Source: Bacillota bacterium (GTDB lineage: Bacteria > Bacillota > SHA-98 > UBA4971). Taken from it: 49,155 nucleotides of DNA. The translations under genes were made by a program, and so were the position numbers. Positions 10,289 through 30,012 of this stretch are shown piece by piece (the stretch's first letter is position 1; each line of letters begins with the position of its first letter). The notes below the pieces were generated by a model, which was not told where the DNA came from, searched no databases, and saw nothing but the letters and a program-made list of their open reading frames with translations. The DNA lies in the NCBI GenBank assembly GCA_040752635.1, contig JBFMGS010000008.1, positions 4,700 through 53,854 of the forward strand. The letters are read 5' to 3'.

Positions 10289-11980
10289 CTACTGCCCTTT
10301 AACTATCGCCACGCTGGCGCTGGCGCCGATCCTGGAGGCCCCCGCCTCGATCATTTTGCGGGCGGATTCCAGGTCTCTGATACCTCCGGAGGCCTTCACA
10401 CCCATGTCGGCGCCGACTACTTTTCGCATTAACCTCACATCGTCAACAGTAGCCCCGCCCGGGCCGAAGCCTGTCGAGGTCTTAACGAAGTCAGCACCGG
10501 CAATTTTTGCCAGCAAACATGCCTTCACTTTTTCCTCATCTGTCAAAAGTGCAGTCTCGAGAATTACCTTTACAAGAGCCCTGCCGCGCGCCGCTTCCAC
10601 TACAGCTTCGATGTCCCGCTTAACAAGGTCGTAGTCGCCCGACTTGAGCGCACCGACGTTGATAACCATGTCTACTTCATCAGCCCCGTTGGCTATGGCG
10701 TCCCGGGTTTCTATGGCCTTGGCGGTTGGCGTCGTGGCTCCCAGCGGGAAACCTATCACCGTGCAGACCTTGACCGGCGTGCCTTTGAGAAGGCTGGAAG
10801 CCAGACTCACATGCGTGGGGTTAACACACACTGACGCGAAGCCGTATTGTTTTGCCTCCTCACACAGCTTAACGACTTGGTCCTTCGTAGCATCTGGCTT
10901 GAGAAGCGTGTGATCTATCATGGCCCCCACGTCGCGAGCGACAGCGCCCACGCCGGGCGCAGCGCCGATCCTGGAAGCGCCCGCCTCGACTATCTTGCTT
11001 GTCCCAACGGGGTTCTCCTGGATACACTTTCCGCACCCGGAACACTCACCGAACAATCTCGAACACGCGGAATCGACAGCGTCGGCTCCAGTCCCAGCCG
11101 CGCCGGGACCAAGGGCATCTTGGCCGGCTCTTGCGTTCGTAGCAGGGCTCTGTACCTCGGCCGGTCTCTCCGACACGCCTCTCGGCGCGAACCCCATCAC
11201 GCGGAGGCCACGCTCGATCTCGTGCGCGAGGCTCTCTGCCTCAACCAGGATTATGCCGTATTCACGTAGTTTCTTGAGGTATTCGTCCGCCTGCCTGCGC
11301 AACGAGAAGGCGTGACGCCGTTGCTGGGTCGGTCCCCCGGTAGCTGGAGCGTGTTGCGGGCCGGAAGCCCCAACGAGGCCGGTAGAGTCCGGCAGCACGA
11401 AGTCGGTGGCGGCATACACTCTCTTCCCCTCCAGGACCGCCCCTAAGATCGCCTTCGTAACCGCGTCGTCCCCGGTGAGCAACGCAACTCTGGCCGCGAC
11501 GTGCAAGGGGAGCACCGGGACCACCACTATGTCAGCACATGAAACTGCAATGGCGGCATCGTCATCGCCCAAGAGCGAAACCTGGCCCAGTGCCTCAGTG
11601 ACGGCATTCTCGCCGCCTGTAGCCCTCGCTTCCTTCGAGAGCAGGCACGCAACGGACACGCCCGGACTGCGGAGTTCGCTCGCCTGTCCCAGCGCACTCA
11701 GAAGCGCTGCTCCCCCTTCTGCCACTACCACCAGCACGCGCCCCGCGCACGTTGAGGCAGGCGCCGCGGAAGCAAGCGACACGGAGGCAGACGACACTCT
11801 TGCAACCTTCTCGTCCATCTTGCCTGCGGGTTTGCTCGAAGGCGTGTCTCCAGGGCCGGCGACCCCGAGTCGAGGCGCCGTTTGACCCCCAGGTATTGCG
11901 CCGCGACTCTTCATGTCGGCTATGACTCCGTCGGTGATTCTCTCTATCAATTCGTCAATGTTCATAGGACGCCGCCGCAT
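10289..11980 (-). CDS. deoC: Fusion: encapsulation peptide + flavoprotein-like domain + Cys4 module + deoxyribose-phosphate aldolase
   Basis: The C-terminal ~220 aa are DeoC ([38 protein letters not shown]). The middle resembles BMC-associated flavoproteins (ADIVVVPVL...[12 protein letters not shown]...[10 protein letters not shown]). Start at ATG 11980 or 11965 (AGGTGG RBS) rather than 12085. Confidence 0.85.
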
Positions 11981-12020
11981 CCCGTCCCGTCCACCTGACT
12001 CGAGAACGAGGAGATGAGGC

Positions 12021-12308
12021 CTACCTCCTTTCACCTTGCCGGCTTGCGTGGATGGCATCGACGACCCCGACGATGGCGGAATCAACAGGCGCCTCGTTGT
12101 TGCCCATGGCCTGCCTTGCAGAGTTGCCCTCGCTCACTACGAGGACGATATCCCCCGGGCCGGCATCCTGAGAGTCGATTGCCAGGATCTCCTGGCCGTA
12201 ATCATTACCGTCGAGGTCCAAAGGCTGGACCAGCAGCATCTTGGACCCGACAAAACTCTTATTCTTCTGGGTCGCGACGACCGACCCAACCACCCTGCCG
12301 ATTACCAC
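12021..12308 (-). CDS. BMC-P shell vertex protein (EutN/CcmL) #1
   Basis: [13 protein letters not shown]...[15 protein letters not shown]...GNSAR...[11 protein letters not shown]. Start GTG 12308 (ORF track over-extends to 12419). Confidence 0.92.
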
Positions 12309-12363
12309 AGCCCCACCCCGATCACAAAGCGCATAAGGCGACAGTCTGTTTCCCGTGCATAGT

Positions 12364-12678
12364 CTATTTCCCGTGCACCGCAGCAGGACCCGCCCTATCG
12401 GATGGCTCCACGTGCACATGGTCCACTATTCCAACAATGGCTACATCGACGGGGGCCCCTGCCCTCGGGAGAGGAAAGGATGCTTCCCGGCCTTTCACAG
12501 CGTGTACAATCTCCCCCGCCCCCGCCCCGACGGTGTCAACCGCGATGAGCGGCTTGCCGCAAGGGGTGCCGTCGCGCTTCAGCGGCTCAACCACAAGTAG
12601 CTTCACGCCTTCGAGTTTTTCGTCTTTTCGCGTAGCGACTATTTTGCCCACTACCCTCGCGATAAACAGGGCGCTCAC
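12364..12678 (-). CDS. BMC-P (EutN/CcmL) #2
   Basis: FIARVVGKIVATRKDEKLEG...AVDTVGAGAGE...PVDVAIVGIVD. Confidence 0.92.
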   Translation of the reverse strand: MSALFIARVVGKIVATRKDEKLEGVKLLVVEPLKRDGTPCGKPLIAVDTVGAGAGEIVHAVKGREASFPLPRAGAPVDVAIVGIVDHVHVEPSDRAGPAAVHGK

Positions 12679-12724
12679 CCTCCGATGTCAAGCAAAAGCT
12701 CGCTCGCCACAGTCAAGGAGACGC

Positions 12725-13183
12725 TCACTCGCCTCTTGAGAGGAACCTTCTCTCGATCTCCATTATCTTGTTCACGCGGCGCAGGTGCCTTCCCCCGGCG
12801 AATTCCGTGGCAAGCCACACCTTCACGATCTCCCTGGCCACACCCTTGCCTACCACCCTGTCGCCCAGCGCCAGGACGTTTGCGTCGTTGTGCTCGCGGC
12901 TGTTCCTGGCCGTATATATGTCCTGGCAGGCGGCGCATCTCACCCCGGGCACCTTGTTTGCTGCCATAGCCGACCCGACCCCCGCGCCGTCCACAATGAT
13001 GCCGCGGTCGAAAAGGCCCCTCGCGACAGCTTCGGCCACAAGAAAGGCAAAGTCAGGATAGTCCACCGGGTCCCTGCTGTGCGTGCCGTAATCCACGCAC
13101 TCATAGCCGAGCTCTCCGAGGTAAGCCTTGATATCTTCCTTCAGTTCAAACCCACCATGGTCGCTGCCGATCACTACTTTCAT
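12725..13183 (-). CDS. rpiB: Ribose-5-phosphate isomerase B family protein
   Basis: GSDHGG, DYPD, AANKVPGVR, SREHNDANVLALG and GGRHLRRV motifs. Confidence 0.92.
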   Translation of the reverse strand: MKVVIGSDHGGFELKEDIKAYLGELGYECVDYGTHSRDPVDYPDFAFLVAEAVARGLFDRGIIVDGAGVGSAMAANKVPGVRCAACQDIYTARNSREHNDANVLALGDRVVGKGVAREIVKVWLATEFAGGRHLRRVNKIMEIERRFLSRGE

Positions 13184-14559
13184 CGTCTGCCCCTCCCGGC
13201 AACGATCGTGATTGCCTCACCAACCTGGGAAACGACACCGGAAATACTCGCATGAACCCTCGCCCCGATTCTACCTTCCGGGATGTCGGCAACAAGGTCG
13301 CCCTCCATCACCTCGTCACCCGGGCGAACGCACGGCACGGCCGGGGCGCCAACGTGCTGGAGCAGCGGGATGTCCACTCTATCAGGGATGAAGAGTTCTA
13401 TTCCAGGAGCATGATGCCCTACGTAGGGAGCAATTCCTGCGCGCATTGTCAGCCTCGATGAAGGTACACGCCTTGACCCCCTCATGGGGTGCGCCAGAAT
13501 ATCGCTGTTATGGTAGGGGTTCTTGACATCTTTTCCCGCCATCGACTGCTTGAGAGCCTGGTTCACTCGAACTGGTGCGAGTCCTGCAGGACAGCCGACG
13601 ATTGCACAAACGCCGCACTCTGAGCAAAGCCAGGCGCTGGTGATTACTTCGGGCGGGGCTCCCGGGCCCATGCTCATTGCACGCATGATGAGATGCGGAG
13701 ATATTCTATGGCCCAAGAGGTGCCGGGGGCATGTTTCGGTGCAGCTCATGCACTGGCAACACGCGGCTCTCGCCCGCTTCAAGATGACTTTGACTTCATC
13801 CTCGCGCATCCTGACGAGCAGGTGGTCGGCAGGCAGCACGATGATCCCGGCGGTGAGCTTCGTTATGACGCCTGATGCGTTCGGCGCCAGCTTGCCCATG
13901 GCCGGCCCGCCCATGATGATTCTGTATCGTTCCACCACAGGCCCGCCTGCAATCTCGATGGCAGCCGCAACCGAAGTGCCTATCGGAAACCGCGCGGTCA
14001 GAGGCCTTGCCACTGCCCCGGCCACTGTGACCAATCGAGAGGTCACCGGGCGCCCTTCCACGGCATTTGCGACGTTTGCCAGGGTGGCCACGTTGCTGAC
14101 GACCACTCCTGCTTCTAGCGGCAAACCCCCTTCAGGTACGTACCTCCCGGTCACCTCGTGCACAAGTACGTGCTCATCCCCTATAGGATAAACGTCATCA
14201 AGCTCGAAGACATCGATGCCGTTCTCGCGCGAGACCGTTTCCCTTATGGCCTGTAGCACCTTGTCGTGCTTTCTTTTGATGGCAACGAAGCCGTGCCGCG
14301 CCCCTGTGGCTTTCATGGCGGCTCGGAGGCCTGCAACGACTTTTGCAGGCTCGAGAAGCATTACTGCCTGGTCGGCGGTTAGCAGGGGTTCGCACTCGGC
14401 GCCGTTTGCGATAACAGTATCCACAGCCGTCGAGAGTTTGACATGCGTCGGAAACCCCGCCCCGCCAGAACCCACGACGCCCGCGTTTCGGATGGCCGCA
14501 ATTATGTCCGCTGGTGCCATCGCCGGCATCTTTACACCACCCAGGAAGCTCGCGCTCAA
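13180..14559 (-). CDS. PduS-like (RnfC/NuoF-related) flavin/Fe-S oxidoreductase
   Basis: GAGFPTHVKL, NGAECEPLL, an SLBB region, and two ferredoxin motifs (CCQCMSCTETCP, CSECGVCAIVGCP). Confidence 0.88.
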   Translation of the reverse strand: MSASFLGGVKMPAMAPADIIAAIRNAGVVGSGGAGFPTHVKLSTAVDTVIANGAECEPLLTADQAVMLLEPAKVVAGLRAAMKATGARHGFVAIKRKHDKVLQAIRETVSRENGIDVFELDDVYPIGDEHVLVHEVTGRYVPEGGLPLEAGVVVSNVATLANVANAVEGRPVTSRLVTVAGAVARPLTARFPIGTSVAAAIEIAGGPVVERYRIIMGGPAMGKLAPNASGVITKLTAGIIVLPADHLLVRMREDEVKVILKRARAACCQCMSCTETCPRHLLGHRISPHLIMRAMSMGPGAPPEVITSAWLCSECGVCAIVGCPAGLAPVRVNQALKQSMAGKDVKNPYHNSDILAHPMRGSRRVPSSRLTMRAGIAPYVGHHAPGIELFIPDRVDIPLLQHVGAPAVPCVRPGDEVMEGDLVADIPEGRIGARVHASISGVVSQVGEAITIVAGRGRR

Positions 14560-14563
14560 TGCC

Positions 14564-14857
14564 TCAACCTTTCCGGTAGACTACTCTGCCTTCCATCTCG
14601 ATGGAGTCCACGATCCCCATAATGACCGCATCTACAGGCGTGTTTTGCGTCTTGGACGTCTGGCGCGCGGAGCTTCCGCTCACCACGAGCACTATCTCCC
14701 CTTCGCCCGCGCCCACTGTATCGATGGCTACGAGGGGCTTCCCATCGGGGGACTGGTCCACTAGAGAGATCGGCTGCACGACCTGGAGCTTTGAGCCCAC
14801 CAGCTTGTCATCCTTTCTGGTGCATACCACCGTGCCCACGACCTTGCAGGCAATCAA
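14564..14857 (-). CDS. BMC-P (EutN/CcmL) #3
   Basis: IACKVVGTVVCTRKD...AIDTVGAGEGE...GSSAR...PVDAVIMGIVD; TTG start with GGAGG RBS. Confidence 0.92.
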   Translation of the reverse strand: MIACKVVGTVVCTRKDDKLVGSKLQVVQPISLVDQSPDGKPLVAIDTVGAGEGEIVLVVSGSSARQTSKTQNTPVDAVIMGIVDSIEMEGRVVYRKG

Positions 14858-15182
14858 TGGGATCCCCCTCCTCCCTGAACGATACTGACCGGTAACGCCC
14901 TCCCCTCCCTGAGGTGAGCGGCATCATCACTTGCAACGATAATCTGTTCCTAAAGGTTGAACCGGTTCTTCAGGACACGAACCCTGACACCTTTACGCAT
15001 CGACACAGGATCCTCCCCGAAGCGCGGCAGCGGCACGGCTGGAGCCATGAGTTCCGCGGCCGCGCCGACCTTTCGTCGCCGACTTCTCGCCGGCGCCCTG
15101 GCACCAGGAGCGTCAGCTTTTTCCAACACTTAGCACCCTGCTCTTTCCGAGAAGACATTCGGGGAGGTCGCCCCTCGCGGTA

Positions 15183-15485
15183 TTACCCTTTCTCCTTCTT
15201 CATTTCTGGCAGGGTGATAGGCAGCTTGCCCTCGAGGTCGAAATGCGGCCTCGGGATCACATGCACCGATACGACTTCGCCGATCTTCGCGGCCGCCGCG
15301 GCCCCGGCGTCGCACGCAGACTTGCACGCCGCCACCTCGCCTCTCACCAGGACGGTGACGTAGCCGCCGCCGATCTTCTCCCAGCCCACGAGCCTCACGT
15401 TTGCTGCCTTGACCATAGCGTCCGCAGCCTCTATCATCGCAACGAGTCCCTTGGTCTCAATCATTCCCAGCGCTTCCATGGCCAT
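15183..15485 (-). CDS. BMC-H shell hexamer (PduA/EutM-like)
   Basis: [26 protein letters not shown]...RGEVAACK...HVIPRPH. Confidence 0.95.
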
Positions 15486-15910
15486 TTGGGTTCACCCCCT
15501 TTCGCTACCGCAACTGCGTAACCTAAACGGACTAATACCGTGGCTATCACACTAACCAGGACGTCGCGGTCCGGGTCCGGCCCGAGCCTTGCGACGGCGG
15601 CGCGCGCTATTCTCGCCATAAGCTCATCCAGCGGAATCCCCGTCTGAAGGCGCTCTCGGCAGGGCAAAGCGCCCTCCGTGCGAACTCCGGAATGCACAGT
15701 GGCCCGGCCCGGTGCCGCGGTCGCCGCGCCGTGGGTCGCCACGACCGACCCGGCGTTGTCCCGACCCTGCTTGTTTATCTCCACGAGGTCTATCCCGTGT
15801 TCCGCAGCGTAATCTCTGGCAGCGGGCGTCACGATCGCACCGCGCGGCACCACAATCTCACACCCTGCCGGAAAGTTCCTCAGTTCCGCCTCGGTGATAA
15901 CCGCTCGCAC
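15461..15910 (-). CDS. BMC-associated hypothetical protein with C-terminal encapsulation-like helices
   Basis: N-terminal VITEAELR...[24 protein letters not shown], a low-complexity linker, then [16 protein letters not shown] and [15 protein letters not shown]. Start GTG 15910 with GGAGGT RBS. Confidence 0.7.
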
Positions 15911-15982
15911 CGGAATACCTCCCGCCTCCTGCATGGCAAACCGTGGAGGATCGCCTTCACCGCCGCACCCGCATGACGGTGC

Positions 15983-16531
15983 TCACAGTAACATCCCAAC
16001 AAGCTCCTTTGCGGGCGAAGGAATCACCACGCGCCCGACGAGCAGGCCTTTCGCACCGGCGTCAGCGCTTCCCGCAGCGATGGCCGCCTGCACCGCACCC
16101 ACCTCTCCGGTGAGAGTCACAAAGCACTTGCCGCCCAGCCCGATGGCAAGGCGCAGTTCGATGGCGTCAACCGCCGCAGCCTTCAGGGCGGCGTCCGCGG
16201 CCACGATCGCTGACGCTACCGTGAAGGTCTCGATGACGCCAAGCGCCTTGACCTCTTTTACGTCGGACGTAGCTGTTATCGCCGGAAACACCCCCGGGTG
16301 CACGTTGGGTAGGATAAACTCGTCCACGACAGCGTCCGCCGCTACCGCCAGGCCTGCAGCAACCGAACTCTTCACGGCGCCTACATCCCCTGATACCAGG
16401 GTCGTATACTTCCCGGGGCAGGTGGGGCGCGCAAGAAGAAGCTCAACGTCAGCAGCCTTGACCATGGCGTCGGTTGCTTCTATTCCCCTCGTTATATTAG
16501 CGAACTCCACGAGACCTATCGCTATACCCAC
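15983..16531 (-). CDS. BMC-T single-layer trimer, PduT-like
   Basis: Two BMC domains; RPTCPGKY carries the pore Cys that binds an Fe-S cluster in PduT. Confidence 0.9.
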   Translation of the reverse strand: MGIAIGLVEFANITRGIEATDAMVKAADVELLLARPTCPGKYTTLVSGDVGAVKSSVAAGLAVAADAVVDEFILPNVHPGVFPAITATSDVKEVKALGVIETFTVASAIVAADAALKAAAVDAIELRLAIGLGGKCFVTLTGEVGAVQAAIAAGSADAGAKGLLVGRVVIPSPAKELVGMLL

Positions 16532-16753
16532 GAGGACTGTCCCCCTCGCACCAGTCTAGAACCGCAAGTCCCGAACTCGTATCTGGTCTCAGAGCCGGGC
16601 ACCGTCGTCCTGGCCGTTGAACACGAGGATGATTGCCCCTTGCGCCATTTCTTACCCGCCGCACCCGGAAAGCACACCGCCAGGCCCGGCCTGCATGTAC
16701 GCAGGCTTCAAAACCCACCGTGCCCCGTGCCGCTAGCTGCTACGAGCAGTCGC

Positions 16754-17560
16754 TCATCTACGGGTCCCGGTGCTCCCGACGACCTCCACCAGATCGCCGT
16801 TTCTCAGGAGCGCCGCGTTGGCTTCATCCGTATCCACGTGCATCTCAAGACGAAAGCTCTTGTCCACCCTCACAAGGACTCGCCCGAACACGAGTCCCCG
16901 ATCCCCCGGGACCTCCACCTCGACGCGGTCCTTATCCCGCAGCCCCCATCGGCTGGCTTCCTCAGGCGTCATGTGGATGTGGCGGACCGCAATGATCGCA
17001 CCCTCTTTCAGGCTGACCAGCCCGCGGGGCCCCACGATTGCTATGGGCGCGGACCCGTCGAGGTCCCCGGAATCCCGTACAGGGGGCGAAATGCCGAGCG
17101 TGTACGCATCGGTCCGGCTCACTTCGACCTGCGTCCGGGCGCGTAGGGGCCCGAGCACCCTCACCGAGGGTATGCTCCCCTTGGGGCCTACAAGGGACAC
17201 GACCTCGTTTGCCACAAACTGCCCGGGTTGTGACAGATCGCGCAGCCTGGACAGGCCCATGCGTGCGGCCTCCGCCCCGAACAGCGCGGCGAAATCCTTC
17301 TCGCAGAGGTGCACGTGGCGATTAGAGACCCCGACAGGTATCACGAGCCTCCCCGCCTGGTCCTTGCTGGCGCCTCGTCCGTCGCCCGCGCCTCGCCCAT
17401 CTCGCCCAGCAGCCGCGCTTCCATCAGGCGACAGCGCCGCCGGGCCGGGCGGATCAGGGATCATGACGCCATGTGGATCAGGAACCACGAGGCCGTTTGC
17501 TTCCAGGTCCCTTATGCATCTAGCAATTAGCTCATCGAGCGATCCAGTGCCCATACTCAC
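16754..17560 (-). CDS. pduL: PduL-type phosphotransacylase with N-terminal encapsulation peptide
   Basis: VGVSNRHVHL, VRVLGP...QVEVSRTD, RHIHM and EMHVDTDEANAA motifs; N-terminal SLDELIARCIRDLEA. Confidence 0.93.
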   Translation of the reverse strand: MSMGTGSLDELIARCIRDLEANGLVVPDPHGVMIPDPPGPAALSPDGSAAAGRDGRGAGDGRGASKDQAGRLVIPVGVSNRHVHLCEKDFAALFGAEAARMGLSRLRDLSQPGQFVANEVVSLVGPKGSIPSVRVLGPLRARTQVEVSRTDAYTLGISPPVRDSGDLDGSAPIAIVGPRGLVSLKEGAIIAVRHIHMTPEEASRWGLRDKDRVEVEVPGDRGLVFGRVLVRVDKSFRLEMHVDTDEANAALLRNGDLVEVVGSTGTRR

Positions 17561-17563
17561 CTG

Positions 17564-17842
17564 CTACGGCTTCGGCAGAATTCTGTCAACGTCCGTATGT
17601 GGCCTGGGGATCACATGCACGCTTACAAGCTCGCCAACTCTCGCAGCAGCAGCGGCGCCTGCATCAGTCGCGGCTTTCACCGCTCCGACATCGCCTCGGA
17701 CCATGACGGTCACATAACCGCCACCTATGTACTCCTTACCGATGAGCACCACGTTCGCTGCCTTGACCATCGCATCTGCGGCCTCGATAGCTCCCACAAG
17801 GCCTTTCGTCTCGACCATTCCCAGTGCGTCCTGAACCATCAA
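17564..17842 (-). CDS. BMC-H shell hexamer (EutM/PduA-like)
   Basis: [26 protein letters not shown]...[14 protein letters not shown]...HVIPRPH. Likely start is ATG 17839. Confidence 0.95.
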
Positions 17843-17960
17843 CCCCGCCCCCTAACGTTATCATCAACACCGTCATTCCCGACTGGTCGTGTCACTGCTG
17901 CCGGACTATACCCGCGCTGCCGGAGTATACCTGCTATGCTGCGCTTTATTGAGTTCTGCG

Positions 17961-19700
17961 CTACTTCGTGTCGTCGCCCCGGCTCAGCTCCGAAAGGAAC
18001 CTGTCCACAACAGCCCGTATCTCTTCGTCTGAAACGATCCTCGTTTGACTGCCTCGCAAGCCCGCGCTGCGGTGCTGAGCGGTCCCCGAGCCGCCTCTGC
18101 CGTCCCTCACCGTGGGTTGACCGGACACAAGCTCAGCGTGCTCCTGGGACTGCACAACGCCTTGCCTGCTCTTGGCTCCGGCTGCAGGCGGTATCGTGAC
18201 GGGCCGGTCAACGGCCGCCGCCGGGCCGACGATGGACGGCACAGGCCTGGGCCCGGAAGGTTGAATCGAGGATTGACTCGCCCTCCAGCTTGCTCCGACT
18301 CGGCGACCTTCGATCCCTTCTTCGTATAGCCCGCGGACATCCTCTGACGTCAGGTCATACGCTACACGCTTCACGTTCACAAGGTGCATCGGCCCCACGT
18401 TATCGGCGGTGATGCTGCCGCCCCAGGTGCCGCACCCGAGGGTCAGAGCGGGCTCGAGTCCCGTAGTCGCACCGATAGCGCCCTGGGAAGACGGGGTGTT
18501 GACGAGGATCCGGAACACGGGCTTCTTCAAGGCAAACTCCCTGATAACAGCCTCATTCCGCGAGTGGATGACAAGGCTGTGGCCGATGCCTCCGAATTTC
18601 AGGATCTCGATGCAGCGCTCGCAGGCTGCCTGCCAGTCAGGCTCGACGTAGAATGCCAGGATTGGGCTGAGCTTCTCCTTTGAAAGCGGGTACTGCGGTC
18701 CAACCCCGGCAAGACGCGCGATGAGGACCCGCGTGCCTTCCGGCACCGTGATTCCAGCCAGCCTGGCAATGGTCGCGGCGCTTCTGCCCACTATGGACGG
18801 GTTGATGTTCCCGGCAGGCTGCACCACGACCCTGGCGAGCGCGGCCGCCTCTGCATCGGTCAGGAAATACCCTCCTTGCGCTCTGACTTCTTCGACAACC
18901 TGGTTCTCAATGACTGACTCAGTCACTATCGCCTGTTCTGACGCACAGATCGTGCCGTTGTCAAAAGTTTTGCTTGCGAAGATGTCCGACACAGCCTTCT
19001 TTATGTCAGCCGTACGCTCTATGAACGCCGGGACGTTCCCCGGTCCGACCCCATAAGCAGGCTTGCCTGCGCTGTAGGCCGCCTTCACCATGGCCGACCC
19101 GCCCGTCGCCAAAATGAGCGCGGTCTCAGGATGGTGCATGAGCTCGTCGGTGGCCTGCTTTGTGGGGTGAATAATGCACTGGATAGCTCCCTTCGGAGCC
19201 CCCGCGGCGCACGCAGCGTCGGCCATGACCTGCGCGGCCTGGCAACTGCACTTGCACGCAGCCGGGTGAGGGCTAAATACAATTGGGTTGCGGGCCTTCA
19301 TGCTGATGAGGCTCTTGTATATCACCGTCGATGTCGGATTCGTAGACGGCACGAGCGCAATGATAACCCCCATCGGCTCTGCTATCTCTGCAATCCTGCG
19401 GGACGGGTCGCGCCGTATGATGCCCACGGTCTTGAGGTCGCGGATGGCTTCGTACACCCGCTCCGAGGCGAAGAGGTTCTTCGTGATCTTGTCCTCGTAT
19501 ACGCCAAAGCCGGTTTCGTCGGCGGCCATCTTTGCCAGCGCACGGGCGTTTGCCCGCCCGGCTTCGGCCATGCTCTTCACAATGCGGTCCACCTGCTCTT
19601 GCGTGAGCGAGGCCAGCTTCGCGCGAGAATCCGCAGCGCGCCTCATTGCTTCCCGAGCTTCTTGAATCGACATCAAGTCCGCATCAACAGCCATCCGCAT
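17961..19700 (-). CDS. CoA-acylating aldehyde dehydrogenase with C-terminal encapsulation peptide
   Basis: [39 protein letters not shown] and TLGCG motifs; a long linker, then [16 protein letters not shown]. Confidence 0.93.
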
Positions 19701-19734
19701 TTCCCCTCCCCCAGCGCAACCGGCTCAGGGCAAG

Positions 19735-20703
19735 CTACCCCAGGCCCTGCACACCCAGAAGCTCTTTAGCCGTCGCCTCGTCGGTAACGAGCACGTTCAT
19801 GAACCGTCCCCGAAGCGCCCCTCGTATCCCGGCGACCTTGTGTGAGCCGCCCGCCACCGCGACGGAGAAATCTTTGCGTGCAAACTCCTGAAGGTCAAGC
19901 CCGATCGTCCTTTGATTCAGGGCCTCATCGCAAATGGATCCGTCCTCCGTGAAGAACCGCGAGCACAGGTCTCCAACCGCACCTCTCGTAACCAGCGCCT
20001 CCATCCCGTCGGGCGAGAAGTAACCGGCCTGGACCAGGATAGACGACTTGTCCGGGTGACCGATCGTGAACACCGCAACGTTCGCACTCTCGCCCATCTC
20101 GAGCACCCTGGATAAATTGCGGTCCTTCACGAGAGCTTCTTTGATTTGCCGGCGCTCGACAATGGCCGGCACGGAAAGGAAGTACGGCGTCGCTCCAAAC
20201 GCCTTTGCAAATAGGAGAGCTATTTCGTTTCCGTGGATTAACGCCTCGCCTTTTCCAGACAGCGTTCCTTCAAGCTGGACTACGCTCACGCCAGCCCGCC
20301 TCATCGGGCGTAGCGCCCGCGCGACCTGGAGCATCGTCGTGCCCCCGGTTACCCCGATCGTGTCGTTATCGCGCACGATCTCCCTGAGCAGCCTCGCAGC
20401 CGCCTGCCCCAGGTGCCATGCCAGAGGCCTGCGGCTTGATCGCGGCACCGGGCAAACCACCGCCCGCTTCAGTCCGAATCTCACCTGAAGCTCCCGCGCG
20501 AGCTCTGACTCTTCCCTAAATGGGTCCGACACGGTTACCTGTACGATACCAATCTCCCTTGCTCTCGTCAGCATCCTTGAAATGCGACTGCGCGACAGCC
20601 CGACTCTCTCCGCAATCTCCTGCTGGCCGAGGCCGTACTCGTAGTACATACGAGCAATTTCGACGAGAACCTCTGCATCTTTGTGTGCCATCTCTGTATC
20701 CAT
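19735..20703 (-). CDS. SorC/DeoR(Bacillus)-family sugar-phosphate-sensing regulator #1
   Basis: HTH ARMYYEYGLGQQEIAERVGLSRSRISRML plus sugar-binding domain (GGTTM, AVGDLCSRFF, RTIG, VAGG). Start ATG 20703 or 20691. Confidence 0.9.
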   Translation of the reverse strand: MDTEMAHKDAEVLVEIARMYYEYGLGQQEIAERVGLSRSRISRMLTRAREIGIVQVTVSDPFREESELARELQVRFGLKRAVVCPVPRSSRRPLAWHLGQAAARLLREIVRDNDTIGVTGGTTMLQVARALRPMRRAGVSVVQLEGTLSGKGEALIHGNEIALLFAKAFGATPYFLSVPAIVERRQIKEALVKDRNLSRVLEMGESANVAVFTIGHPDKSSILVQAGYFSPDGMEALVTRGAVGDLCSRFFTEDGSICDEALNQRTIGLDLQEFARKDFSVAVAGGSHKVAGIRGALRGRFMNVLVTDEATAKELLGVQGLG

Positions 20704-20845
20704 GCCCACTCTCCGACCTCGTGCTCGAGGGACTGCAGCGTACCCCCAGGAACTCGACGCCCTGCTATCCTCCGGGGGAACGCGCTCGCTATTGCATGCC
20801 GCTACGGTCAACTTGGGATCCCCAAGTTACCGGGGCCCGGGCTTT

Positions 20846-20995
20846 CCGCTTCAGTCCGAATCTCACCTGAATCTCCCCCGTGAGCTCTGACTCTTCCCTA
20901 AATGGGTCCGACACGGTTACCTGTACGATACCGGTCTCCCTTGCTCTCGTCAGCAACCTCGAAACGCGACTGCGCGACAGCCCGACTCTCTCCGC
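20846..20995 (-). pseudogene. 150-bp duplicate of the HTH region of regulator #1
   Basis: Aligned by hand to 20464-20613: 142/150 identical, no indels; lacks the gene's start and C-terminal domain. Confidence 0.85.
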
Positions 20996-21030
20996 CACTG
21001 GCTTTTCCAACAGTTTTGAGTGGTTCGGTG

Positions 21031-21064
21031 AGCACGTTTGTGCCTGCATAGGCACAAACGTGCT
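21031..21064. promoter_or_regulatory. Tandem palindromic operator (GCAC-N4-GTGC x2) upstream of the BMC operon
   Basis: GCACGTTTGTGC (21032-21043) and GCACAAACGTGC (21052-21063); together they form a perfect 15-bp inverted repeat. Confidence 0.6.
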
Positions 21065-21285
21065 TCCAACAAGTTATTCGCTGCCGGCACAAGAATTCCT
21101 GCAACTCCGGTAAAGACTTCTAGGATTTTCTCTTGCCAAACTCTGGACGTGTTACAAATAGTGGCCTTTTGCGGGCATTGCTCCACACGGCACCGCCAGG
21201 ACACTCAGGATATGTCCCAACACGGCCGTGCAAGAGTTGCAAGGCTTATCAGGAGATCAGGCGTGAATACCGTCCTACTTCGGTC

Positions 21286-22233
21286 TCATGTTAGACGCAT
21301 CATCTCAAGGGCTGCAAGTTCGTCTATGATGAGCGTATTCACATAACCTCCTCTCGCCGCGCCGACTATACCCCTCGCTTTGTGTGCTCCGGCAGCCACG
21401 CCGACAGTATGTTCCTTGTTGCGTAGATCCTCAAGACCGATGCCGATAGTCCGCGCGTCGAGTTCAGGGTCAACGATGTTCCCGTTAATGTCAAAGTACC
21501 TCGAACATATGTCTCCGACTGCCCCACGGGTGACGAGGCTCGCAACCTCCTGTGCCGTGACGTAGCCTGCCTCCACCAGGATAGAACGGGCATCAGGAAA
21601 ACCAACGCTAAAGACAGCTACGTCCGCCCGCTTAGCCAGGTCAATAGTAGACCGTATCCCGGGATCTGCAAGGAACTGCGCGCACAGATCTCTGCTGCGG
21701 GTGACCGCTGGAGCCGGGAGTGAGTACGACTCCGCGTTGTATGCCTGTGCAAACTTCATCAATATGGTGGCAGCGTTCTCGTGGGTGCGGCTCGACCTGG
21801 CATTCCCATTCAACTGCACTACTCTCACCCCGGACAGCCCATTGGGAATCAATCTTCCGGCCACTTCATACATAGTCGTCCCCCAGGAAACAGCTATCAC
21901 GGCCCTGTCGCGGATAATACCGTGAAGATACGAGGCTGCAACCTCGCTGACAGCCCGTTTTGCCTCCTGGTCGTCGTCCTTTGAGTTTGGGACGATTATG
22001 ACTTCCTTGAGTCCGAATATCTGCTTAAGGACCTCAGCCCTCTCTTTACAAGCTTCTTCAGGATCGAACACCTCTATCTTGACAAGGCCTTTTACCCGGG
22101 CTTGCGAGAGGCATCTCGAGACCACCGGCCTTGATACCCCCACCATCCGCGCGATTTCAGCCTGAGTAAGTCCATCTTCGTAATAGAGCCTGGCCACCCT
22201 CGAACAGAGTTCGTCACTGTCCACAATGCTCAT
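21286..22233 (-). CDS. SorC/DeoR(Bacillus)-family regulator #2
   Basis: VARLYYEDGLTQAEIARMVGVSRPVVSR, SWGTTM and AVGDICSRYF motifs. Confidence 0.92.
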   Translation of the reverse strand: MSIVDSDELCSRVARLYYEDGLTQAEIARMVGVSRPVVSRCLSQARVKGLVKIEVFDPEEACKERAEVLKQIFGLKEVIIVPNSKDDDQEAKRAVSEVAASYLHGIIRDRAVIAVSWGTTMYEVAGRLIPNGLSGVRVVQLNGNARSSRTHENAATILMKFAQAYNAESYSLPAPAVTRSRDLCAQFLADPGIRSTIDLAKRADVAVFSVGFPDARSILVEAGYVTAQEVASLVTRGAVGDICSRYFDINGNIVDPELDARTIGIGLEDLRNKEHTVGVAAGAHKARGIVGAARGGYVNTLIIDELAALEMMRLT

Positions 22234-23264
22234 AGCAGGGCCACACCACCCAGCGGCGTCTCAGAATCGGTCCTCGCGTTAACCCGAACCTGGTTCACAC
22301 TGGGCGCCTGGTGTCTTGCCAAATTCATCACGTCTCGGGCGGTGGTCTCGTCCGTTATCAGGACGTCAACATACCCGGCACGAATAGCGCCCAGTATACC
22401 GGCCACTTTCTGTCCACCGCCTGCAACCGTTATTTTGAGGGGAATCGTCGCAAGGTTCGAAAGGGATAGGCCAAGAGTGCGCTTATCAAGGGTAGGGTCG
22501 CAGATCCGCCCGAGGCTGTCAAAGAAACGAGAGCAGATGTCCCCCACCGCACCCCTGATCTGCAGATTCTTCATGTCCTCTGGTGTTAGATAGCCTGCCC
22601 CAACAAGAACGCATGCGGGGTCCACTACACCTACGGTAAAAACAGCAACGTCGGATCCTCTTGCGATCTCCAGGGCCTCTGCAATAGACGGATCCTTGCT
22701 GAACGCCTCGCTGAGAGCCGGGTCTTGAACAATAGCCGGGGCGGGAAACGAAAGCGCCTTAGCTCCCAGCTTGGTGGCAATCATCTGAAGCACCTGCGCC
22801 CCCAGGTACGAGGCTCCTCCTTGGCCAACGCAGCCATTTAGCTGCACCACGCAGACTCCTGGTATTCTAGCAGGTCGGAGCCTTAGGGCTACTTCGAATA
22901 GAGTGGTCCCCCAGGATATGCCTACCTTATGCCCCGGCCGAATCACTTCTGAGAGGTATGACGCGGCCGCTGCACCCAACCGCTCTTTGAGTCTGGCATC
23001 CCCACCACCGTCAATGGCAGGGACGAGGACCAGGTCTTTAAGGCCGAACGCCCGCTGCAGCTCGCTGCCTGCGCCGGAGCCCGCGGTGTTCCCGCTGGCA
23101 AATGATATCTTTACGATACCTCTGCGTTTTGCCTCCGCCAGCATTCGAGACACGGTCGATCTTGATGTCCCTAAAGATACAGCGATTTCCCGTTCAGACA
23201 GATTCTCCTCATAGTACAATCTTGCAGCGCGGACGAGGTCGCGAAGCCGCCCGAGGTCACTCAA
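22230..23264 (-). CDS. SorC/DeoR(Bacillus)-family regulator #3
   Basis: AARLYYEENLSEREIAVSLGTSRSTVSRML, SWGTTL and AVGDICSRFF motifs; stop overlaps the start of #2. Confidence 0.92.
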   Translation of the reverse strand: MSDLGRLRDLVRAARLYYEENLSEREIAVSLGTSRSTVSRMLAEAKRRGIVKISFASGNTAGSGAGSELQRAFGLKDLVLVPAIDGGGDARLKERLGAAAASYLSEVIRPGHKVGISWGTTLFEVALRLRPARIPGVCVVQLNGCVGQGGASYLGAQVLQMIATKLGAKALSFPAPAIVQDPALSEAFSKDPSIAEALEIARGSDVAVFTVGVVDPACVLVGAGYLTPEDMKNLQIRGAVGDICSRFFDSLGRICDPTLDKRTLGLSLSNLATIPLKITVAGGGQKVAGILGAIRAGYVDVLITDETTARDVMNLARHQAPSVNQVRVNARTDSETPLGGVALL

Positions 23265-23321: not shown

Positions 23322-24389
23322 TTAGCTCCGTGATGCAAGCCAGCGCTGTAAGAATACGCCGCCCAGGATGATTATTCCTTTCACGATTCGCTGCGGGAAA
23401 GGATGAACACCGACGAGATTGAGCACATTCGTAATGAGGGTGAGTATTAACACCCCGACTGCCGTGCCCGTCACGCCCCCGCGGCCCCCCGACAGGCTGG
23501 TGCCGCCGATGACTACCGCGGCAATTGCGTCCAATTCGAAGAGCTCCCCTTGCCTGGGTTCACCCTGGTCAATACGGCACGCCATGAGTATCCCCGCAAG
23601 CGCGGCAAACGCGCCGGCGATCACGTACACAAGGATCTTGTGACGGTCGCAGTTGATGCCCGATAACCTCGCAGAGTCTTCGTCCCCTCCCACCGCGTAG
23701 ACCCACCGTCCGAAAACGGTCCTCTTCAGAACAAACGCTGATACAAGAAGGCAGGCGATCCAGATAGCGACAGGGACCGGCAGACGGCCCAAGTTTCCAA
23801 ACCCAAACACCGAAAGGGACTCGCCCAGGCCGAATATGGTCCTCCCTCCGGCCAACATGTAGGCCACGCCTCTGATAGACACCATTGTTGCAAGGGTGGC
23901 AACGAATGCAGGGATCTGAGCCTTTGCGATCAAGAACCCGTTTACCAGGCCGACCACAGCGCCGGACGCAAGTGCCGTTATGACAATAAGCGGATCGGGC
24001 ATCGCCGGCGAAAGAGTGACGACGTAGCCTTTGTAACCACCCCAGTGGAACAGGTAGGCCAGCAAGACCCCGGATACCGCGACAGTAGCACCTACTGAAA
24101 GATCGATGCCTCCGGACAGGATCACGAAAGTCATACCGGTGGCCACAAGCCCGATGTAGCTTGCCTGCCGCAAAAGGTTCGCTATGTTAGTCCACGTCAG
24201 AAACGCCGGTGAGACCTGTGCGCTGACAATAACAAGGAGCAGGAATATCATGTACACACTGTTTCTGCCTAGCGCATCCCGCCAGGCGCCAACCCGTCTC
24301 ACCTTACGCTCAAGATGAAGCCTAGTGGCGACAGGTTGTCCATTTGCTCCCGTCACGCCCATCACGCGACCCTCACCCCCATCGCGCAA
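23322..24389 (-). CDS. Ribose-type (CUT2) ABC permease
   Basis: GGIDLSVG, IPAFVATL, AVGGDEDSARLSGI and ELDAIAAVVIGGTSLSGG motifs. The start is probably near 24363-24366. Confidence 0.92.
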   Translation of the reverse strand: MRDGGEGRVMGVTGANGQPVATRLHLERKVRRVGAWRDALGRNSVYMIFLLLVIVSAQVSPAFLTWTNIANLLRQASYIGLVATGMTFVILSGGIDLSVGATVAVSGVLLAYLFHWGGYKGYVVTLSPAMPDPLIVITALASGAVVGLVNGFLIAKAQIPAFVATLATMVSIRGVAYMLAGGRTIFGLGESLSVFGFGNLGRLPVPVAIWIACLLVSAFVLKRTVFGRWVYAVGGDEDSARLSGINCDRHKILVYVIAGAFAALAGILMACRIDQGEPRQGELFELDAIAAVVIGGTSLSGGRGGVTGTAVGVLILTLITNVLNLVGVHPFPQRIVKGIIILGGVFLQRWLASRS

Positions 24390-25876
24390 GCAAGAACATC
24401 CTCTTGTGTGGTTTCTTTCGGCACGAACTCTCCAGCAATGCTGCCCTTTCGCATAACGATGAGCCTGTCGCTTATCGCCATTATCTCGGAAAGCTCCGAC
24501 GATATCACAAGCAACGCCTTGCCCTGACCTGCTATGGCTCTGATGAGCGCGTGGATCTCCGTTTTAGCACCTACGTCCACGCCGCGCGTCGGCTCATCCA
24601 GGATCAGTACCCTGCACGCCGTTGCAAGCCATTTAGCTAACACTACTTTCTGCTGGTTCCCGCCGCTCAGGTTTTCTACGAGCGTCGAGAGAGAAGCCAC
24701 CTTGATCCTCAATTCATCCACGGACTTCTTTGCTGTCGCGTGGAGAGACCGTGCGTTTACCACTCCGAACTTCGAAAGTTGCTCCCAAATCGTCAGCGTC
24801 GAGTTGTCGGCGACGCTCATGCCAAGCACCAGGCCATGCCTCTTTCTATCTTCGGGAACCAGCCCGATTCCAAGTCTCATTGCATGTCGCGGCGAGGAAG
24901 GTTTCACTTCCTTCCCGTCCAGGATGATTGTCCCCGAATCCGACCTATCCGCTCCGACCAGTGCGTGCGCCAGCTCCGTTCTGCCGGCCCCGACAAGTCC
25001 GAACACGCCTACGATCTCACCTGCTAGTATGTGGAGGCTCACATCAGTCAGGACTCCCCGGCGGGAAAGGTTTCTGACCTCCAGAACAGGTGCCCCGGCG
25101 CTGTGCTCTACTCTACCGTTAGATTCCACCACCTCTCTCCCGGTCATCATGCGGACCAAGTCCGATTGCGTAACATCCGAAACCCTGAACGTTCCGACCA
25201 CCTCCCCGTCTCTAAGGACGGTGACGCGGTCGCCTATCTCGAAGATTTCCTCAAGACGGTGAGAAATGTATATAATTGCCACGCCGTCCCGCTGAAGTCC
25301 TTTCATTATATTGAACAGCTTACCCAGCTCTTCCACTGTCAACACGGCTGACGGCTCATCCAGCACTATCACCTTCGCCCTGAAGGACAGGGCTTTGGCG
25401 ATTGCAATGATCTGTTGCTGCGCAACAGTGAGTTGCTCCACAGGCACAGCCACGTCAACCTCGACACCGAAAGGCTCTATCAGCCTTTCGGCTTCCTGGT
25501 GTTGCCGGCGGGCATTCACGGTTCCAAGAGGAGTCCGGATCTCCCGGCCGAGGAATATGTTCTCCGTGGCTGAAAGGCAGGGATTCAACGCCAGTTCCTG
25601 GTACAGTACTGATATGCCCGCCTTCAGCGCCGCATGGGGATTCGGAAAGATCATCTTTTCCCCATCCAGCAAGATATCGCCTCCGTCCATCCTGTAAGCC
25701 CCGCCGAGGATCTTCATGAGAGTTGACTTGCCTGCGCCGTTCTGTCCCACCAGGCAATGAATCTCGCCCCGTCGCACAGAGAGGGAGACGTCGTGTAGAG
25801 CCCTCACGCCGGGAAACGATTTCGAGACGTGCTCCATGCGCAGTACAAACTCATCTGCCACTATAACCACCACCAC
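24362..25876 (-). CDS. CUT2 ABC ATPase (RbsA/MglA-like, two domains)
   Basis: GQNGAGKST, DEPSA, YISHRLEEI, LSGGNQQK and DEPTRGVDVGAK motifs. Confidence 0.95.
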   Translation of the reverse strand: MVVVIVADEFVLRMEHVSKSFPGVRALHDVSLSVRRGEIHCLVGQNGAGKSTLMKILGGAYRMDGGDILLDGEKMIFPNPHAALKAGISVLYQELALNPCLSATENIFLGREIRTPLGTVNARRQHQEAERLIEPFGVEVDVAVPVEQLTVAQQQIIAIAKALSFRAKVIVLDEPSAVLTVEELGKLFNIMKGLQRDGVAIIYISHRLEEIFEIGDRVTVLRDGEVVGTFRVSDVTQSDLVRMMTGREVVESNGRVEHSAGAPVLEVRNLSRRGVLTDVSLHILAGEIVGVFGLVGAGRTELAHALVGADRSDSGTIILDGKEVKPSSPRHAMRLGIGLVPEDRKRHGLVLGMSVADNSTLTIWEQLSKFGVVNARSLHATAKKSVDELRIKVASLSTLVENLSGGNQQKVVLAKWLATACRVLILDEPTRGVDVGAKTEIHALIRAIAGQGKALLVISSELSEIMAISDRLIVMRKGSIAGEFVPKETTQEDVLACAMGVRVA

Positions 25877-25888
25877 ATAGCGCCATGC

Positions 25889-26938
25889 TTACCGCCTTCG
25901 CGTGGCCCCTTGCATGAGCACCGCCGCGATAATGATCAGGCCTTTGGCAACTTGCTGTGGGTATGGCGGTACTTCCATGAGGTTGAGGATGTTCGAGATA
26001 AGCCCAAGCACCAGCGCGCCTATGACCGTCCCCGCAATGCTGCCCCGCCCGCCGCTCAAAGAGGTACCACCGATGATCGCTGCTGCAATGGCGTCAGCTT
26101 CCATACCGGCACCCTCGCGCGGCTCGGCCGCGCCCATCCGACCGAGCATTAGCACACCCGCAAGAGTTGCCAGCACCCCGCTTATCGTGTATACGATGAT
26201 TCTGACCCGGTCGCTATCTATCCCAGAAAGCCACGAGGCGCGTTCATTGCCTCCAACAGCATATACTTTCTTCCCGAACACGGAGCTCCTCAATACAAAC
26301 ATGCACGCAACTGATACCAGCGCCCAAATCATAACGGGTACCGGCAACACGCCAACCCGACCGGCACCCAACCATTCGACTTCGTGAGTAATACCCGGAA
26401 TCGGAAACCCTGCGGTATAGGTAAAGGCGAGACCTCGAATCGCGACCATTGCGCCAAGCGTGACGACGAACGGAGGCATGCCGGCTTTGGTGACCAGGAC
26501 CCCATTTATAAACCCGAGCAGTGCCCCGACTCCGAGTGTGAGAAGCAGGGTGGGGAGGAAAGGCATGATAGGTGCGAGTTCTCTAGATTGCTCAAAACCG
26601 GCTGTCAACTCAGGCATGAACCTGAAAAAGAAACCATGCTGGAAGGTGGCAAGCAGAACTCCTGCGAAGGCGAAAGTTGCACCGACTGACAGGTCGATCC
26701 CTCCGGTGAGGATCACAAAAGTCATCCCCAGGCTCACAAGGCCCACAAAGCTCGACCTGAGCAGCAGATTCATGATGTTCTCCACGGTGAAGAACCGGGG
26801 CGATATGAGCCCGGAAATGACAACGAGCGCCCCGAATACGATATAAAGCTTGTATGCGGTCCAAAACGCGGCGAGCCGCCCGCCTCGCCAGCCTTTGTAT
26901 TCCAAACCGGAACTCCCGGACACTTCCCTAGACAACAT
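25889..26938 (-). CDS. CUT2 ABC permease
   Basis: GGIDLSVG, MPPFVVTLG, AVGGNERASWLSGI and DAIAAAIIGGTSLSGG motifs. Confidence 0.92.
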   Translation of the reverse strand: MLSREVSGSSGLEYKGWRGGRLAAFWTAYKLYIVFGALVVISGLISPRFFTVENIMNLLLRSSFVGLVSLGMTFVILTGGIDLSVGATFAFAGVLLATFQHGFFFRFMPELTAGFEQSRELAPIMPFLPTLLLTLGVGALLGFINGVLVTKAGMPPFVVTLGAMVAIRGLAFTYTAGFPIPGITHEVEWLGAGRVGVLPVPVMIWALVSVACMFVLRSSVFGKKVYAVGGNERASWLSGIDSDRVRIIVYTISGVLATLAGVLMLGRMGAAEPREGAGMEADAIAAAIIGGTSLSGGRGSIAGTVIGALVLGLISNILNLMEVPPYPQQVAKGLIIIAAVLMQGATRRR

Positions 26939-27009
26939 GATTCCAGCCCCGTTTCCTTAACTGCCGCCTTCTAAGAACAGCCGTCCTCTAAGGTTCGCAC
27001 GCCCCGCCA

Positions 27010-27053
27010 CCCGGGTCCGGGCTCTCTCGTCACCGAGCTCGCCCGGACCCGGG
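27010..27053. promoter_or_regulatory. GC-rich stem-loop just 3' of the solute-binding gene
   Basis: Perfect 13-bp stem CCCGGGTCCGGGC/GCCCGGACCCGGG with no U-tract; position typical of an mRNA-stabilising or partial-termination element in ABC operons. Confidence 0.55.
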
Positions 27054-27114
27054 AATGCAGGCACCGTCTTACCTGTCCCTGCACGGCGGGGTCACGCAAC
27101 TCCCCTGGGCTTTC

Positions 27115-28074: not shown

Positions 28075-28250
28075 CTTTGATAACCCCCCCTAAAGAAGAT
28101 CTCTGAAATAGATAGTTGTGCTACAACTGACGCCAGTTCCATCCGCTTGAGTTTCACCGCCATGCGTCATCTGTCCTCCGTCGTCATTTCACCTCCTCGA
28201 GAATGGGACCACCTTGCCCTGGACGCCATGCGAGAAGGCCTCCGTGAGCG

Positions 28251-29813: not shown

Positions 29814-30012
29814 AAACGTCCAGCGGCCTCCATAACGACTATCAACGACTTGTTCTCGTCCGGTCCGTCAACGACTGTTCTCATCCAGTCCTAAAGACCT
29901 AGACGACCCGCCTCTACCTGATGTTCCAAAGCGCAGGAGTGCAGGCCCTTGACCCCGGGGCTCAGGAAGCCCGGCGCAAGACAAGCCCTGGCCCCGCTCT
30001 CCTCTCGCAGTG

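Follow-up and report, generated by a model that had tools for sequence, protein, structure and literature searches.

The 49,155-nucleotide stretch of DNA analysed here, referred to below as the window (contig JBFMGS010000008.1 of a Bacillota genome assembly), contains at 10289–20703 a bacterial microcompartment (BMC) locus that, judging from its genes, probably encodes a complete metabolosome of the sugar-phosphate utilisation (SPU) type, processing deoxyribose 5-phosphate (dR5P). SPU organelles are among the most widespread microcompartment types and are still only partly characterised. They have been catalogued (Axen 2014, PMC4207490; Sutter 2021, PMC8217296), and by 2021 the count exceeded 280 loci, spread over 26 phyla. 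The deoxyribose-5-phosphate aldolase (DERA) and ribose-5-phosphate isomerase (RPI) of the SPU6 subtype have been characterised (Dwyer 2024, PMC11585597). The statement in an earlier, sequence-only reading of this DNA that the type is far less studied than others now holds only in part, since in 2024 the SPU6 DERA was reported to be active on dR5P, the RPI to be inactive on ribose 5-phosphate (R5P) and the two proteins to form a complex (PMC11585597). The locus is an ordinary member of this known type and leaves the accepted model of SPU organelle function unchanged, while extending the SPU range to an uncultured, spore-forming, high-GC Bacillota family. Its interest to specialists lies in a fusion of the signature aldolase with a flavoprotein-like domain whose partner module is split off, in the class of the aldehyde dehydrogenase (AldDH) and the position of its encapsulation peptide (EP), and in what looks like a vestigial EP in relatives that have no organelle.

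The classification rests first on the aldolase. A DeoC-family aldolase in the locus is the signature of SPU and unique to it; here it lies in a 563-residue fusion protein encoded by a single open reading frame (ORF; 10289–11980, minus strand), which matches TIGR00126 at its 3′ end with 299.6 bits against a cut-off of 117.3. As in published SPU loci, this DERA carries an N-terminal extension, in this case of ~350 residues with a helix at residues 8–25. The acylating AldDH (17961–19700, minus strand) exceeds the TIGR02518 cut-off and ends in an amphipathic helix that constitutes its EP, and the BMC-P triplet is represented by three PF03319 genes, all on the minus strand (pentamer 1, 14564–14857, 110.3 bits; pentamer 2, 12364–12678, 96.3 bits; pentamer 3, 12021–12308, 92.9 bits, with a GTG start at 12308). 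End-to-end alignment of the RpiB-family protein (12725–13183, minus strand; PF02502, 193.6 bits) with PDB 3HE8 and Escherichia coli 1NN4 revealed DGAG in place of CGTG (IIVDGAGVG), so that Asp occupies the position of the catalytic Cys and Ala that of the neighbouring Thr; the HND motif retains its His. PduS is a further feature held in common with published SPU loci. The SPU-type assignment of the sequence-only reading is thus borne out by the DERA extension, the AldDH EP, the BMC-P triplet and the Cys-to-Asp change in RpiB, all of which are present. Unlike published SPU loci, this one has neither a class II aldolase nor a triose-phosphate isomerase (TPI; none among the ORFs scanned in 10289–23264), its RpiB has no N-terminal EP, and its DERA extension is ~350 residues long with a flavoprotein-like domain rather than ~70 residues. 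It also differs from the characterised SPU6 operon, which has a GntR regulator, in having three SorC regulators.

Comparison with the SPU subtypes, based on the main-text descriptions in PMC11585597, showed features shared with those that combine a phosphotransacylase (PTAC) with PduS. Like SPU1, SPU4 and SPU7, it has a PTAC with an EP and PduS and no BMC-T(dp), its sole BMC-T being a single-layer, PduT-like protein. The AldDH of those subtypes carries its EP at the N-terminus, and TPI is prominent in SPU1 and SPU4 (PMC11585597); here the EP is C-terminal and TPI is missing. A C-terminal EP on AldDH is described solely for SPU6, which is without PduS and has BMC-T(dp) (PMC11585597). The locus matches SPU1, SPU4 and SPU7 in enzymes and shell proteins, though not in AldDH, and it indicates that a PTAC-bearing SPU locus can employ an AdhE-like AldDH with a C-terminal EP. 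A distant SPU locus on the metagenome contig L033, which encodes the homologue P0062, shares the flavoprotein–DERA fusion, PduL, PduS, an Asp-type RpiB, three BMC-P, BMC-H and BMC-T. It differs in gene order and in its AldDH, which is of the EutE/PduP class (PRK15398, 662 bits) and has its EP at the N-terminus, and it also encodes an extended TPI and a class II aldolase.

The AldDH belongs to the AdhE-N-like class, scoring 681.6 bits with TIGR02518 (cut-off 620.1, residues 6–451) and only 246 bits with PRK15398 (cut-off 403). It has a C-terminal tail of ~128 residues with the amphipathic helix at its end, and the catalytic-Cys motif could be read from the translation. It has no N-terminal extension, because no earlier start codon lies between the start of the ORF and the preceding stop, and the model match begins at residue 6. 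The PduL-type phosphotransacylase (16754–17560, minus strand; PF06130, 246 bits over residues 75–252; PRK15070, 257 bits against 209) begins with an EP, SLDELIARCIRDLEANG, followed by a linker of ~50 residues, and contains the RHVHL and RHIHM motifs. In the case of RpiB an N-terminal EP is excluded because its ATG overlaps the PduS stop codon (ATGA) and the frame is not extendable upstream. The RPIs of SPU loci all show the Cys-to-Asp change (PMC11585597), and the simplest reading is that RpiB probably enters the shell bound to DERA, as in the SPU6 pair. PduS (13180–14559, minus strand) comprises Complex1_51K, SLBB, Fer4_17 and RnfC_N domains, and both of its Cys clusters are present. The BMC-T protein (15983–16531, minus strand; 182 residues) consists of two PF00936 domains (154 bits), matches the eut_PduT model TIGR02526 below its cut-off (133 bits) and has a Cys in the sequence ARPTCPGK; CPGK is the Fe–S cluster-ligand motif of PduT, which makes this Cys a putative cluster ligand. 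Two BMC-H hexamer genes, also on the minus strand, complete the shell (hexamer 1, 17564–17842, PF00936 100.8 bits; hexamer 2, 15183–15485, PF00936 103.8 bits and EutM model 145 bits against 133). Three classes of shell gene, with PF00936 three times (once in tandem) and PF03319 three times, are thus clustered with the enzymes within 6 kb. Targeting helices occur at the N-termini of DERA and PduL and at the C-termini of AldDH and a 149-residue hypothetical protein.

Pfam and NCBIfam scans showed that all genes of 10289–20703 lie intact and co-oriented on the minus strand, with transcription running from high to low coordinates. The components listed in the sequence-only reading (AldDH, PduL, DeoC, RpiB, PduS, PduT, two BMC-H, three BMC-P and a hypothetical protein) and their common orientation were confirmed in these scans. 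DeoC was rightly recognised, although it is no separate gene of ~220 codons; it forms the C-terminal third of the 563-residue ORF. This ORF is free of stops for 598 codons, and the likely start is ATG 11980 or ATG 11965, giving ~563 residues. Its architecture was derived from an alignment of 11 homologues (A1) and from two AlphaFold models; a fold search with the model of the whole fusion gave DERA matches only, and the N-terminal part was hence modelled separately.

The fusion consists of an EP, an HFCD-flavoprotein-like domain, a CxxCGxC motif, a copy of the last strand of DERA, and DERA itself. The EP is an amphipathic helix at residues 8–25 (11906–11959, minus strand) that is conserved in A1 and predicted with a pLDDT of ~73–90; a linker predicted to be disordered follows at residues 29–76. 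Residues 82–261 (11198–11737, minus strand; pLDDT 75–95) form an alpha/beta domain with a Rossmann-like HFCD fold; E values of 1e-6 to 1e-4 were obtained for its top 40 Foldseek matches, which are UbiX, CoaC, MrsD and EpiD-type proteins, those to UbiX, PPC decarboxylase and MrsD being ~1e-6. Beyond a second linker (residues 266–305; A1 and AlphaFold) lies the Cys motif C306-x6-C313-x2-C316-G-x-C319 (11024–11065, minus strand), defined from A1 in a region where AlphaFold confidence is low. C313, C316, G317, C319 and P324 are invariant in A1; the motif resembles that of ferredoxins, except that Asn replaces the usual fourth Cys before Pro, and it occurs in most, not all, distant fused homologues. 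The segment at residues 329–340 (10961–10996, minus strand) repeats the C-terminal segment of DERA at 10322–10357, the direct repeat (D3) being 78% identical over 51 nt; it gives weak profile matches to DERA C-termini, and its residues G334, A335, S336 and R337 are invariant in A1. The catalytic domain (residues 348–563; 10289–10939, minus strand) is 71% identical to the housekeeping DERA BH1352 of Bacillus halodurans (6D33), whose fold (TM 0.94) and catalytic residues it shares; the Asp and both Lys (D437, K500 and K529) are invariant in A1. BH1352 itself lacks an EP, a flavoprotein-like domain, the Cys motif and the second copy of the last strand, and its gene lies outside any BMC locus.

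The fusion goes together with the organelle in this family. A frame of 537–590 residues with a full-length match at 68–72% identity was found in 8/8 family genomes with BMC genes so arranged, and family genomes without the SPU locus have a short DERA; the N-terminal extension is missing, for example, from the BMC-less g2 genomes G013 and G017. The exception is G016, a short-DERA genome of the sister genus g3 with a divergent BMC fragment on a separate contig. This fragment (L027; contig 218, 3.1 kb) carries BMC-H, BMC-T and PduS that are only 44–50% identical to those of the window; it represents another BMC type or else contamination, for which the estimate in that genome is 4%. In a profile search of 1.84 billion representatives we found 681 relatives, mostly stand-alone proteins of ~260 residues with an N-terminal EP. 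Among the best 150, ~15 are 446–516 residues long, and all 15 of the sequences inspected end in a DERA domain. Two distant fused DERAs lie directly after BMC-P genes and a third belongs to L033, the SPU locus with TPI and class II aldolase; since distant SPU loci carry the fusion too, it is not lineage-specific, and in SPU loci the signature enzyme often takes the form of a four-part fusion that includes a BMC flavoprotein-like module. In another distant SPU locus, with the fused DERA P0016, a 5′-nucleotidase (Metallophos and 5_nucleotid_C; L031, 447–2006) stands between BMC-P genes, a position that fits a nucleotide-derived substrate. Long DERA frames in the class-level relatives G020 and G021 were considered as BMC-related and rejected, as they are PfkB kinase–DERA fusions: frames of ~590–620 residues with an N-terminal PfkB-type sugar kinase (L020, 16081–17940, plus strand; L021, 1416–3182, minus strand) and no BMC genes nearby. 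The main text of Dwyer 2024 (PMC11585597) describes a DERA extension of ~70 residues and an RPI–DERA chimera, and does not mention a flavoprotein module on DERA.

Axen 2014 (PMC4207490) lists stand-alone 'flavoproteins' (PF02441) as accessory proteins in EUT2B, EUT2D and GRM3 loci, and the DERA extension matches such proteins with an hhalign probability of 100% (E 2e-40). The fusion resembles them in its N-terminal EP and HFCD-like domain, and differs in that this domain is fused to DERA, in that their 'IVTPLARD' module is on a separate protein, and in that the TGG and TxNTAAK motifs are degenerate. The separate protein is the 149-residue hypothetical (15461–15910, minus strand), which starts at GTG 15910 behind AGGAGG/GGGAGG and had been noted as EP-bearing in the sequence-only reading; its homologues, also of 149 residues, bear out the gene call. 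The protein itself gives a weak E3_binding match; a homologue search yielded only 10 close homologues, all of them free of Pfam domains, and a search against PDB sequences gave no significant match. In their alignment (A3) an N-terminal 'VITEAELR...' module, a variable linker and C-terminal amphipathic helices ('VLV.VIATVL.RLGYAV') could be distinguished, the helices being conserved and EP-like. The N-terminal module corresponds to the C-terminal module of the stand-alone BMC flavoproteins (hhalign probability 97.7%, E 2e-12). Because of these hhalign matches, the two halves of a BMC flavoprotein can be assigned to two proteins here, the flavodomain on DERA and the 'IVTPLARD' module on the 149-residue protein, which on this ground may serve as an adaptor or scaffold. 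One stand-alone flavoprotein adjoins PduL and a radical-SAM enzyme.

The enzymes suggest the following pathway. dR5P would enter the shell, having been formed from deoxynucleosides by nucleoside phosphorylase and phosphopentomutase or from deoxyribose by a kinase. DERA would cleave it, with glyceraldehyde 3-phosphate leaving the shell and acetaldehyde being kept inside, and AldDH would convert the acetaldehyde to acetyl-CoA and NADH. PduL would regenerate CoA and release acetyl-phosphate, from which a cytoplasmic acetate kinase could produce ATP. Since no alcohol dehydrogenase was found in the BMC locus, NAD+ would probably be regenerated by PduS, with electrons passing out through an Fe–S pore in the PduT-like shell protein. 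The route from dR5P through acetaldehyde and acetyl-CoA to acetyl-phosphate, already proposed in the sequence-only reading, is the standard SPU model, and the enzymes encoded here fit it. No DERA besides the fused one was found in the genome, acetate kinase is encoded elsewhere in it, pyrimidine-nucleoside phosphorylase is present in 18/18 family genomes and phosphopentomutase (deoB) exceeds its cut-off in 15/18; together with the DeoR-like regulators, these observations fit the dR5P model.

Several points nevertheless weigh against this interpretation or against parts of it. The class of the AldDH and its C-terminal EP are at odds with the published PTAC-bearing SPU subtypes (PMC11585597). 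deoB was not found in the metagenome-assembled genome (MAG) under study, which is 87% complete. Electron export by PduS and PduT is something that we infer from the gene content. With regard to the fusion, the window protein has no PF02441 match of its own, although homologues do reach the model (the distant fused P0012 with 24.9 bits against 22.7, and several stand-alone homologues), and in this lineage the nucleotide-binding motifs of the domain are degenerate (AEGG for TGG and PLHVAAR for TxNTAAK). HFCD proteins form trimers or dodecamers, and joining such a domain to the oligomeric DERA would give a multivalent scaffold able to nucleate the core; this, too, we infer. The main loose end is the set of adjacent genes for polyol uptake, oxidation and phosphorylation, which a pure dR5P model does not account for.

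These neighbours lie outside the conserved unit. When the window proteins were compared by tblastn with 19–21-kb stretches from relatives, the order SorC3-SorC2-SorC1-AldDH-BMC-H-PduL-BMC-T-hypothetical-BMC-H-BMC-P-PduS-RpiB-BMC-P-BMC-P-DERA was shared by G001, G003 and G009. The order also matches in UBA6811, where the contig begins inside SorC2, and in the distant metagenome contig L032, which however has one SorC regulator only, so that at least five related assemblies of uncultured Bacillota share this arrangement. Downstream of DERA the conserved order continues with a small acid-soluble spore protein (SASP) gene, two chromate-transporter genes and a PHP gene. Shell proteins are 85–98% identical across genera (96–98% for BMC-H hexamer 1) and linkers diverge. 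The region upstream of SorC3 is variable: G003 has the CUT2 importer and FGGY kinase of the window at ~81% identity, and G001 and G009 have other Zn-dehydrogenases and an FGGY kinase merely 22–25% identical to that of the window. Because the genes upstream of SorC3 vary in this way, the conserved module comprises the regulators and the BMC genes (10289–23264); the extent of 10289–20703 given in the sequence-only reading is correct for the genes it covers and ends too early. Upstream of SorC3, the window carries two sugar-uptake modules. The first (23322–32575) encodes two Zn-dehydrogenases along with a CUT2 importer and a pentulokinase-like FGGY kinase; the second (33298–40126) combines a ribokinase that exceeds the TIGR02152 cut-off with a CUT1 importer and a pair of MalK-like ATPases. 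The ribokinase-family enzyme of the latter could phosphorylate deoxyribose too.

It is therefore worth asking whether the organelle serves mainly an imported polyol or pentose, the CUT2 importer, Zn-dehydrogenases and FGGY kinase supplying a pentulose phosphate to the Asp-type RpiB and to DERA. In favour of this, the genes for import, phosphorylation and oxidation are co-oriented and stand immediately upstream of the three regulators. In G001, G003 and G009, too, a module with a Zn-dehydrogenase, an FGGY kinase or both lies upstream of these regulators. RpiB-family enzymes with altered catalytic bases are known to use other sugar phosphates (PMC11585597), and a D-erythrulose-4-phosphate isomerase model is among the weaker NCBIfam matches of RpiB. 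However, the upstream module is not orthologous among the relatives, as the FGGY identities of 22–25% in G001 and G009 and 81% in G003 indicate, the conserved unit consists of regulators and BMC genes only, and L032 and L033 have no such module beside the locus. Moreover, DERA scores as a strict deoC equivalog, none of the locus enzymes makes a 2-deoxy sugar from a pentitol, and the SPU6 RPI is inactive on R5P (PMC11585597). We consider a role mainly in polyol or pentose use unlikely.

A related idea concerns the extension itself. The flavoprotein-like domain and the invariant CxxCGxC motif may be redox-active rather than purely structural, with flavin and an Fe–S cluster, and wire DERA into the PduS/PduT-like path of NAD+ recycling; alternatively, together with the Asp-type RpiB, they may allow polyol-derived sugar phosphates to be used besides dR5P. 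Either role is unlikely. If the redox or the polyol proposal were true, it would provide a function for the 'flavoprotein' accessory proteins of several BMC types.

We also considered that the fused gene might yield two products, with the internal Met before IDHTLLKPD serving as an additional or the sole start for a free cytoplasmic DERA and the upstream part forming a separate EP-bearing flavoprotein-like protein. This Met precedes the canonical DERA N-terminus, the free-standing DERA of BMC-less relatives begins at about the same point, and no other DERA was found in the genome. On the other hand, no stop separates the two parts in the fused homologues inspected, which include those of eight family genomes and of >15 clusters formed at 50% identity, and in-frame conservation extends over the linker and the Cys/AGASRIG segment. 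As no stop codon intervenes, the upstream part is not releasable as a separate protein, and we regard two products as improbable, the single-chain fusion being the preferred reading.

The short DERAs of BMC-less relatives offer some insight into the history of the locus. In a maximum-likelihood tree of 39 DERA domains they nest among the fused forms: those of g3 group as sister to the fused P0011 (support 99/95), and those of G013 and G017 fall within the g1+g2 long clade (96/87). The contig encoding P0011 has a full BMC locus and a g3-type flank. The g3 short DERAs (~270 residues; L014/G006, L016/G004 and L028/G016) start with an EP helix, for example MELDQLIEKVTVELMKEF (MELDQLIEKVT.ELMKE...), which a short linker connects to DERA; neither the flavodomain nor the Cys motif is present. 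In G013 and G017 the EP has been lost as well. The EP on the g3 enzymes looks like a targeting signal that has outlived its organelle. The simplest account is that an ancestral SPU locus occupied this site and was lost repeatedly; we put this forward tentatively because the tree includes few non-BMC DERAs. A simple insertion site relative to the BMC-less G017 was sought and rejected; the upstream flank there has HutP and aromatic amino-acid genes and provides no clean empty site. The family thus offers a natural comparison set in which the organelle is present, absent or represented by a leftover EP on DERA, and such comparisons could be used to study the gain and loss of encapsulation signals and cargo scaffolds. 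That the locus is itself a decaying or silent relic, as its repeated loss in relatives, the shortened DERA kept alone at the same site by BMC-less relatives in two genera and a partial gene duplication in the regulator region might suggest, is highly improbable, given that 15/15 genes are intact with their catalytic motifs kept and that the shell proteins remain 85–98% identical across genera despite the diverging linkers.

The host genome is a MAG of 2.58 Mb in 196 contigs, with the locus on contig 8, and the GC content of the window is high (55–63%). Its nearest named relatives are the uncultured MAGs 'Firmicutes bacterium UBA6811' and 'Bacillota bacterium Yes71-24'. The locus is the sole BMC locus found in the 87%-complete assembly. 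Description of the organism as a spore-former in the sequence-only reading is backed at the genome level by alpha/beta SASP genes and a Spo0A match of 378 bits; two loci, on contigs C4 and C37, exceed the Spo0A model cut-off (378 and 259 bits).

Three SorC-family regulator genes, all on the minus strand, stand at the head of the conserved unit: SorC3 (22230–23264; PF04198, 217.8 bits; NF053881, 267 bits), SorC2 (21286–22233; PF04198, 242.5 bits; NF053881, 309.8 bits) and SorC1 (19735–20703; PF04198, 230.9 bits; NF053881, 339.5 bits). All are nearest Bacillus DeoR, with scores below the NF053881 cut-off of 420. SorC2 and SorC3 overlap by 4 nt and their positions are conserved in G001, G003 and G009; SorC1 starts at ATG 20703, with GGAG. 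DeoR of Bacillus subtilis is induced by dR5P, and by their resemblance to it the three regulators probably tie expression of the locus to sugar phosphates. The gap between regulators 2 and 1 contains a perfect 13-bp inverted repeat, GCACGTTTGTGCC-N6-GGCACAAACGTGC (21031–21063), which is a candidate operator or hairpin. Exact GCAC-N4-GTGC sequences occur in the 49-kb window only at 21032 and 21052, where they jointly form this repeat; the idea of a GCAC-N4-GTGC operator was dropped, as one-mismatch sites are not enriched (36 against 28±5 expected). The same gap holds a 150-nt partial duplicate (20846–20995, minus strand; repeat family D1) that is 95% identical to the 5′ coding part of SorC1 (20464–20613). 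This helix-turn-helix-coding stretch, duplicated 382 nt upstream, creates a spurious 88-residue ORF (20789–21055). The SorC1 5′ stretch is single copy in relatives, and the duplicate is either real or an artefact of MAG assembly.

Nothing in the window matched an Rfam family at gathering thresholds, and a promoter and terminator scan yielded no signals above shuffled expectation. Two long non-coding gaps, at 14858–15182 (325 nt) and 16532–16753 (222 nt), interrupt the otherwise tight operon; the counterpart of the former measures 155–184 nt in relatives.

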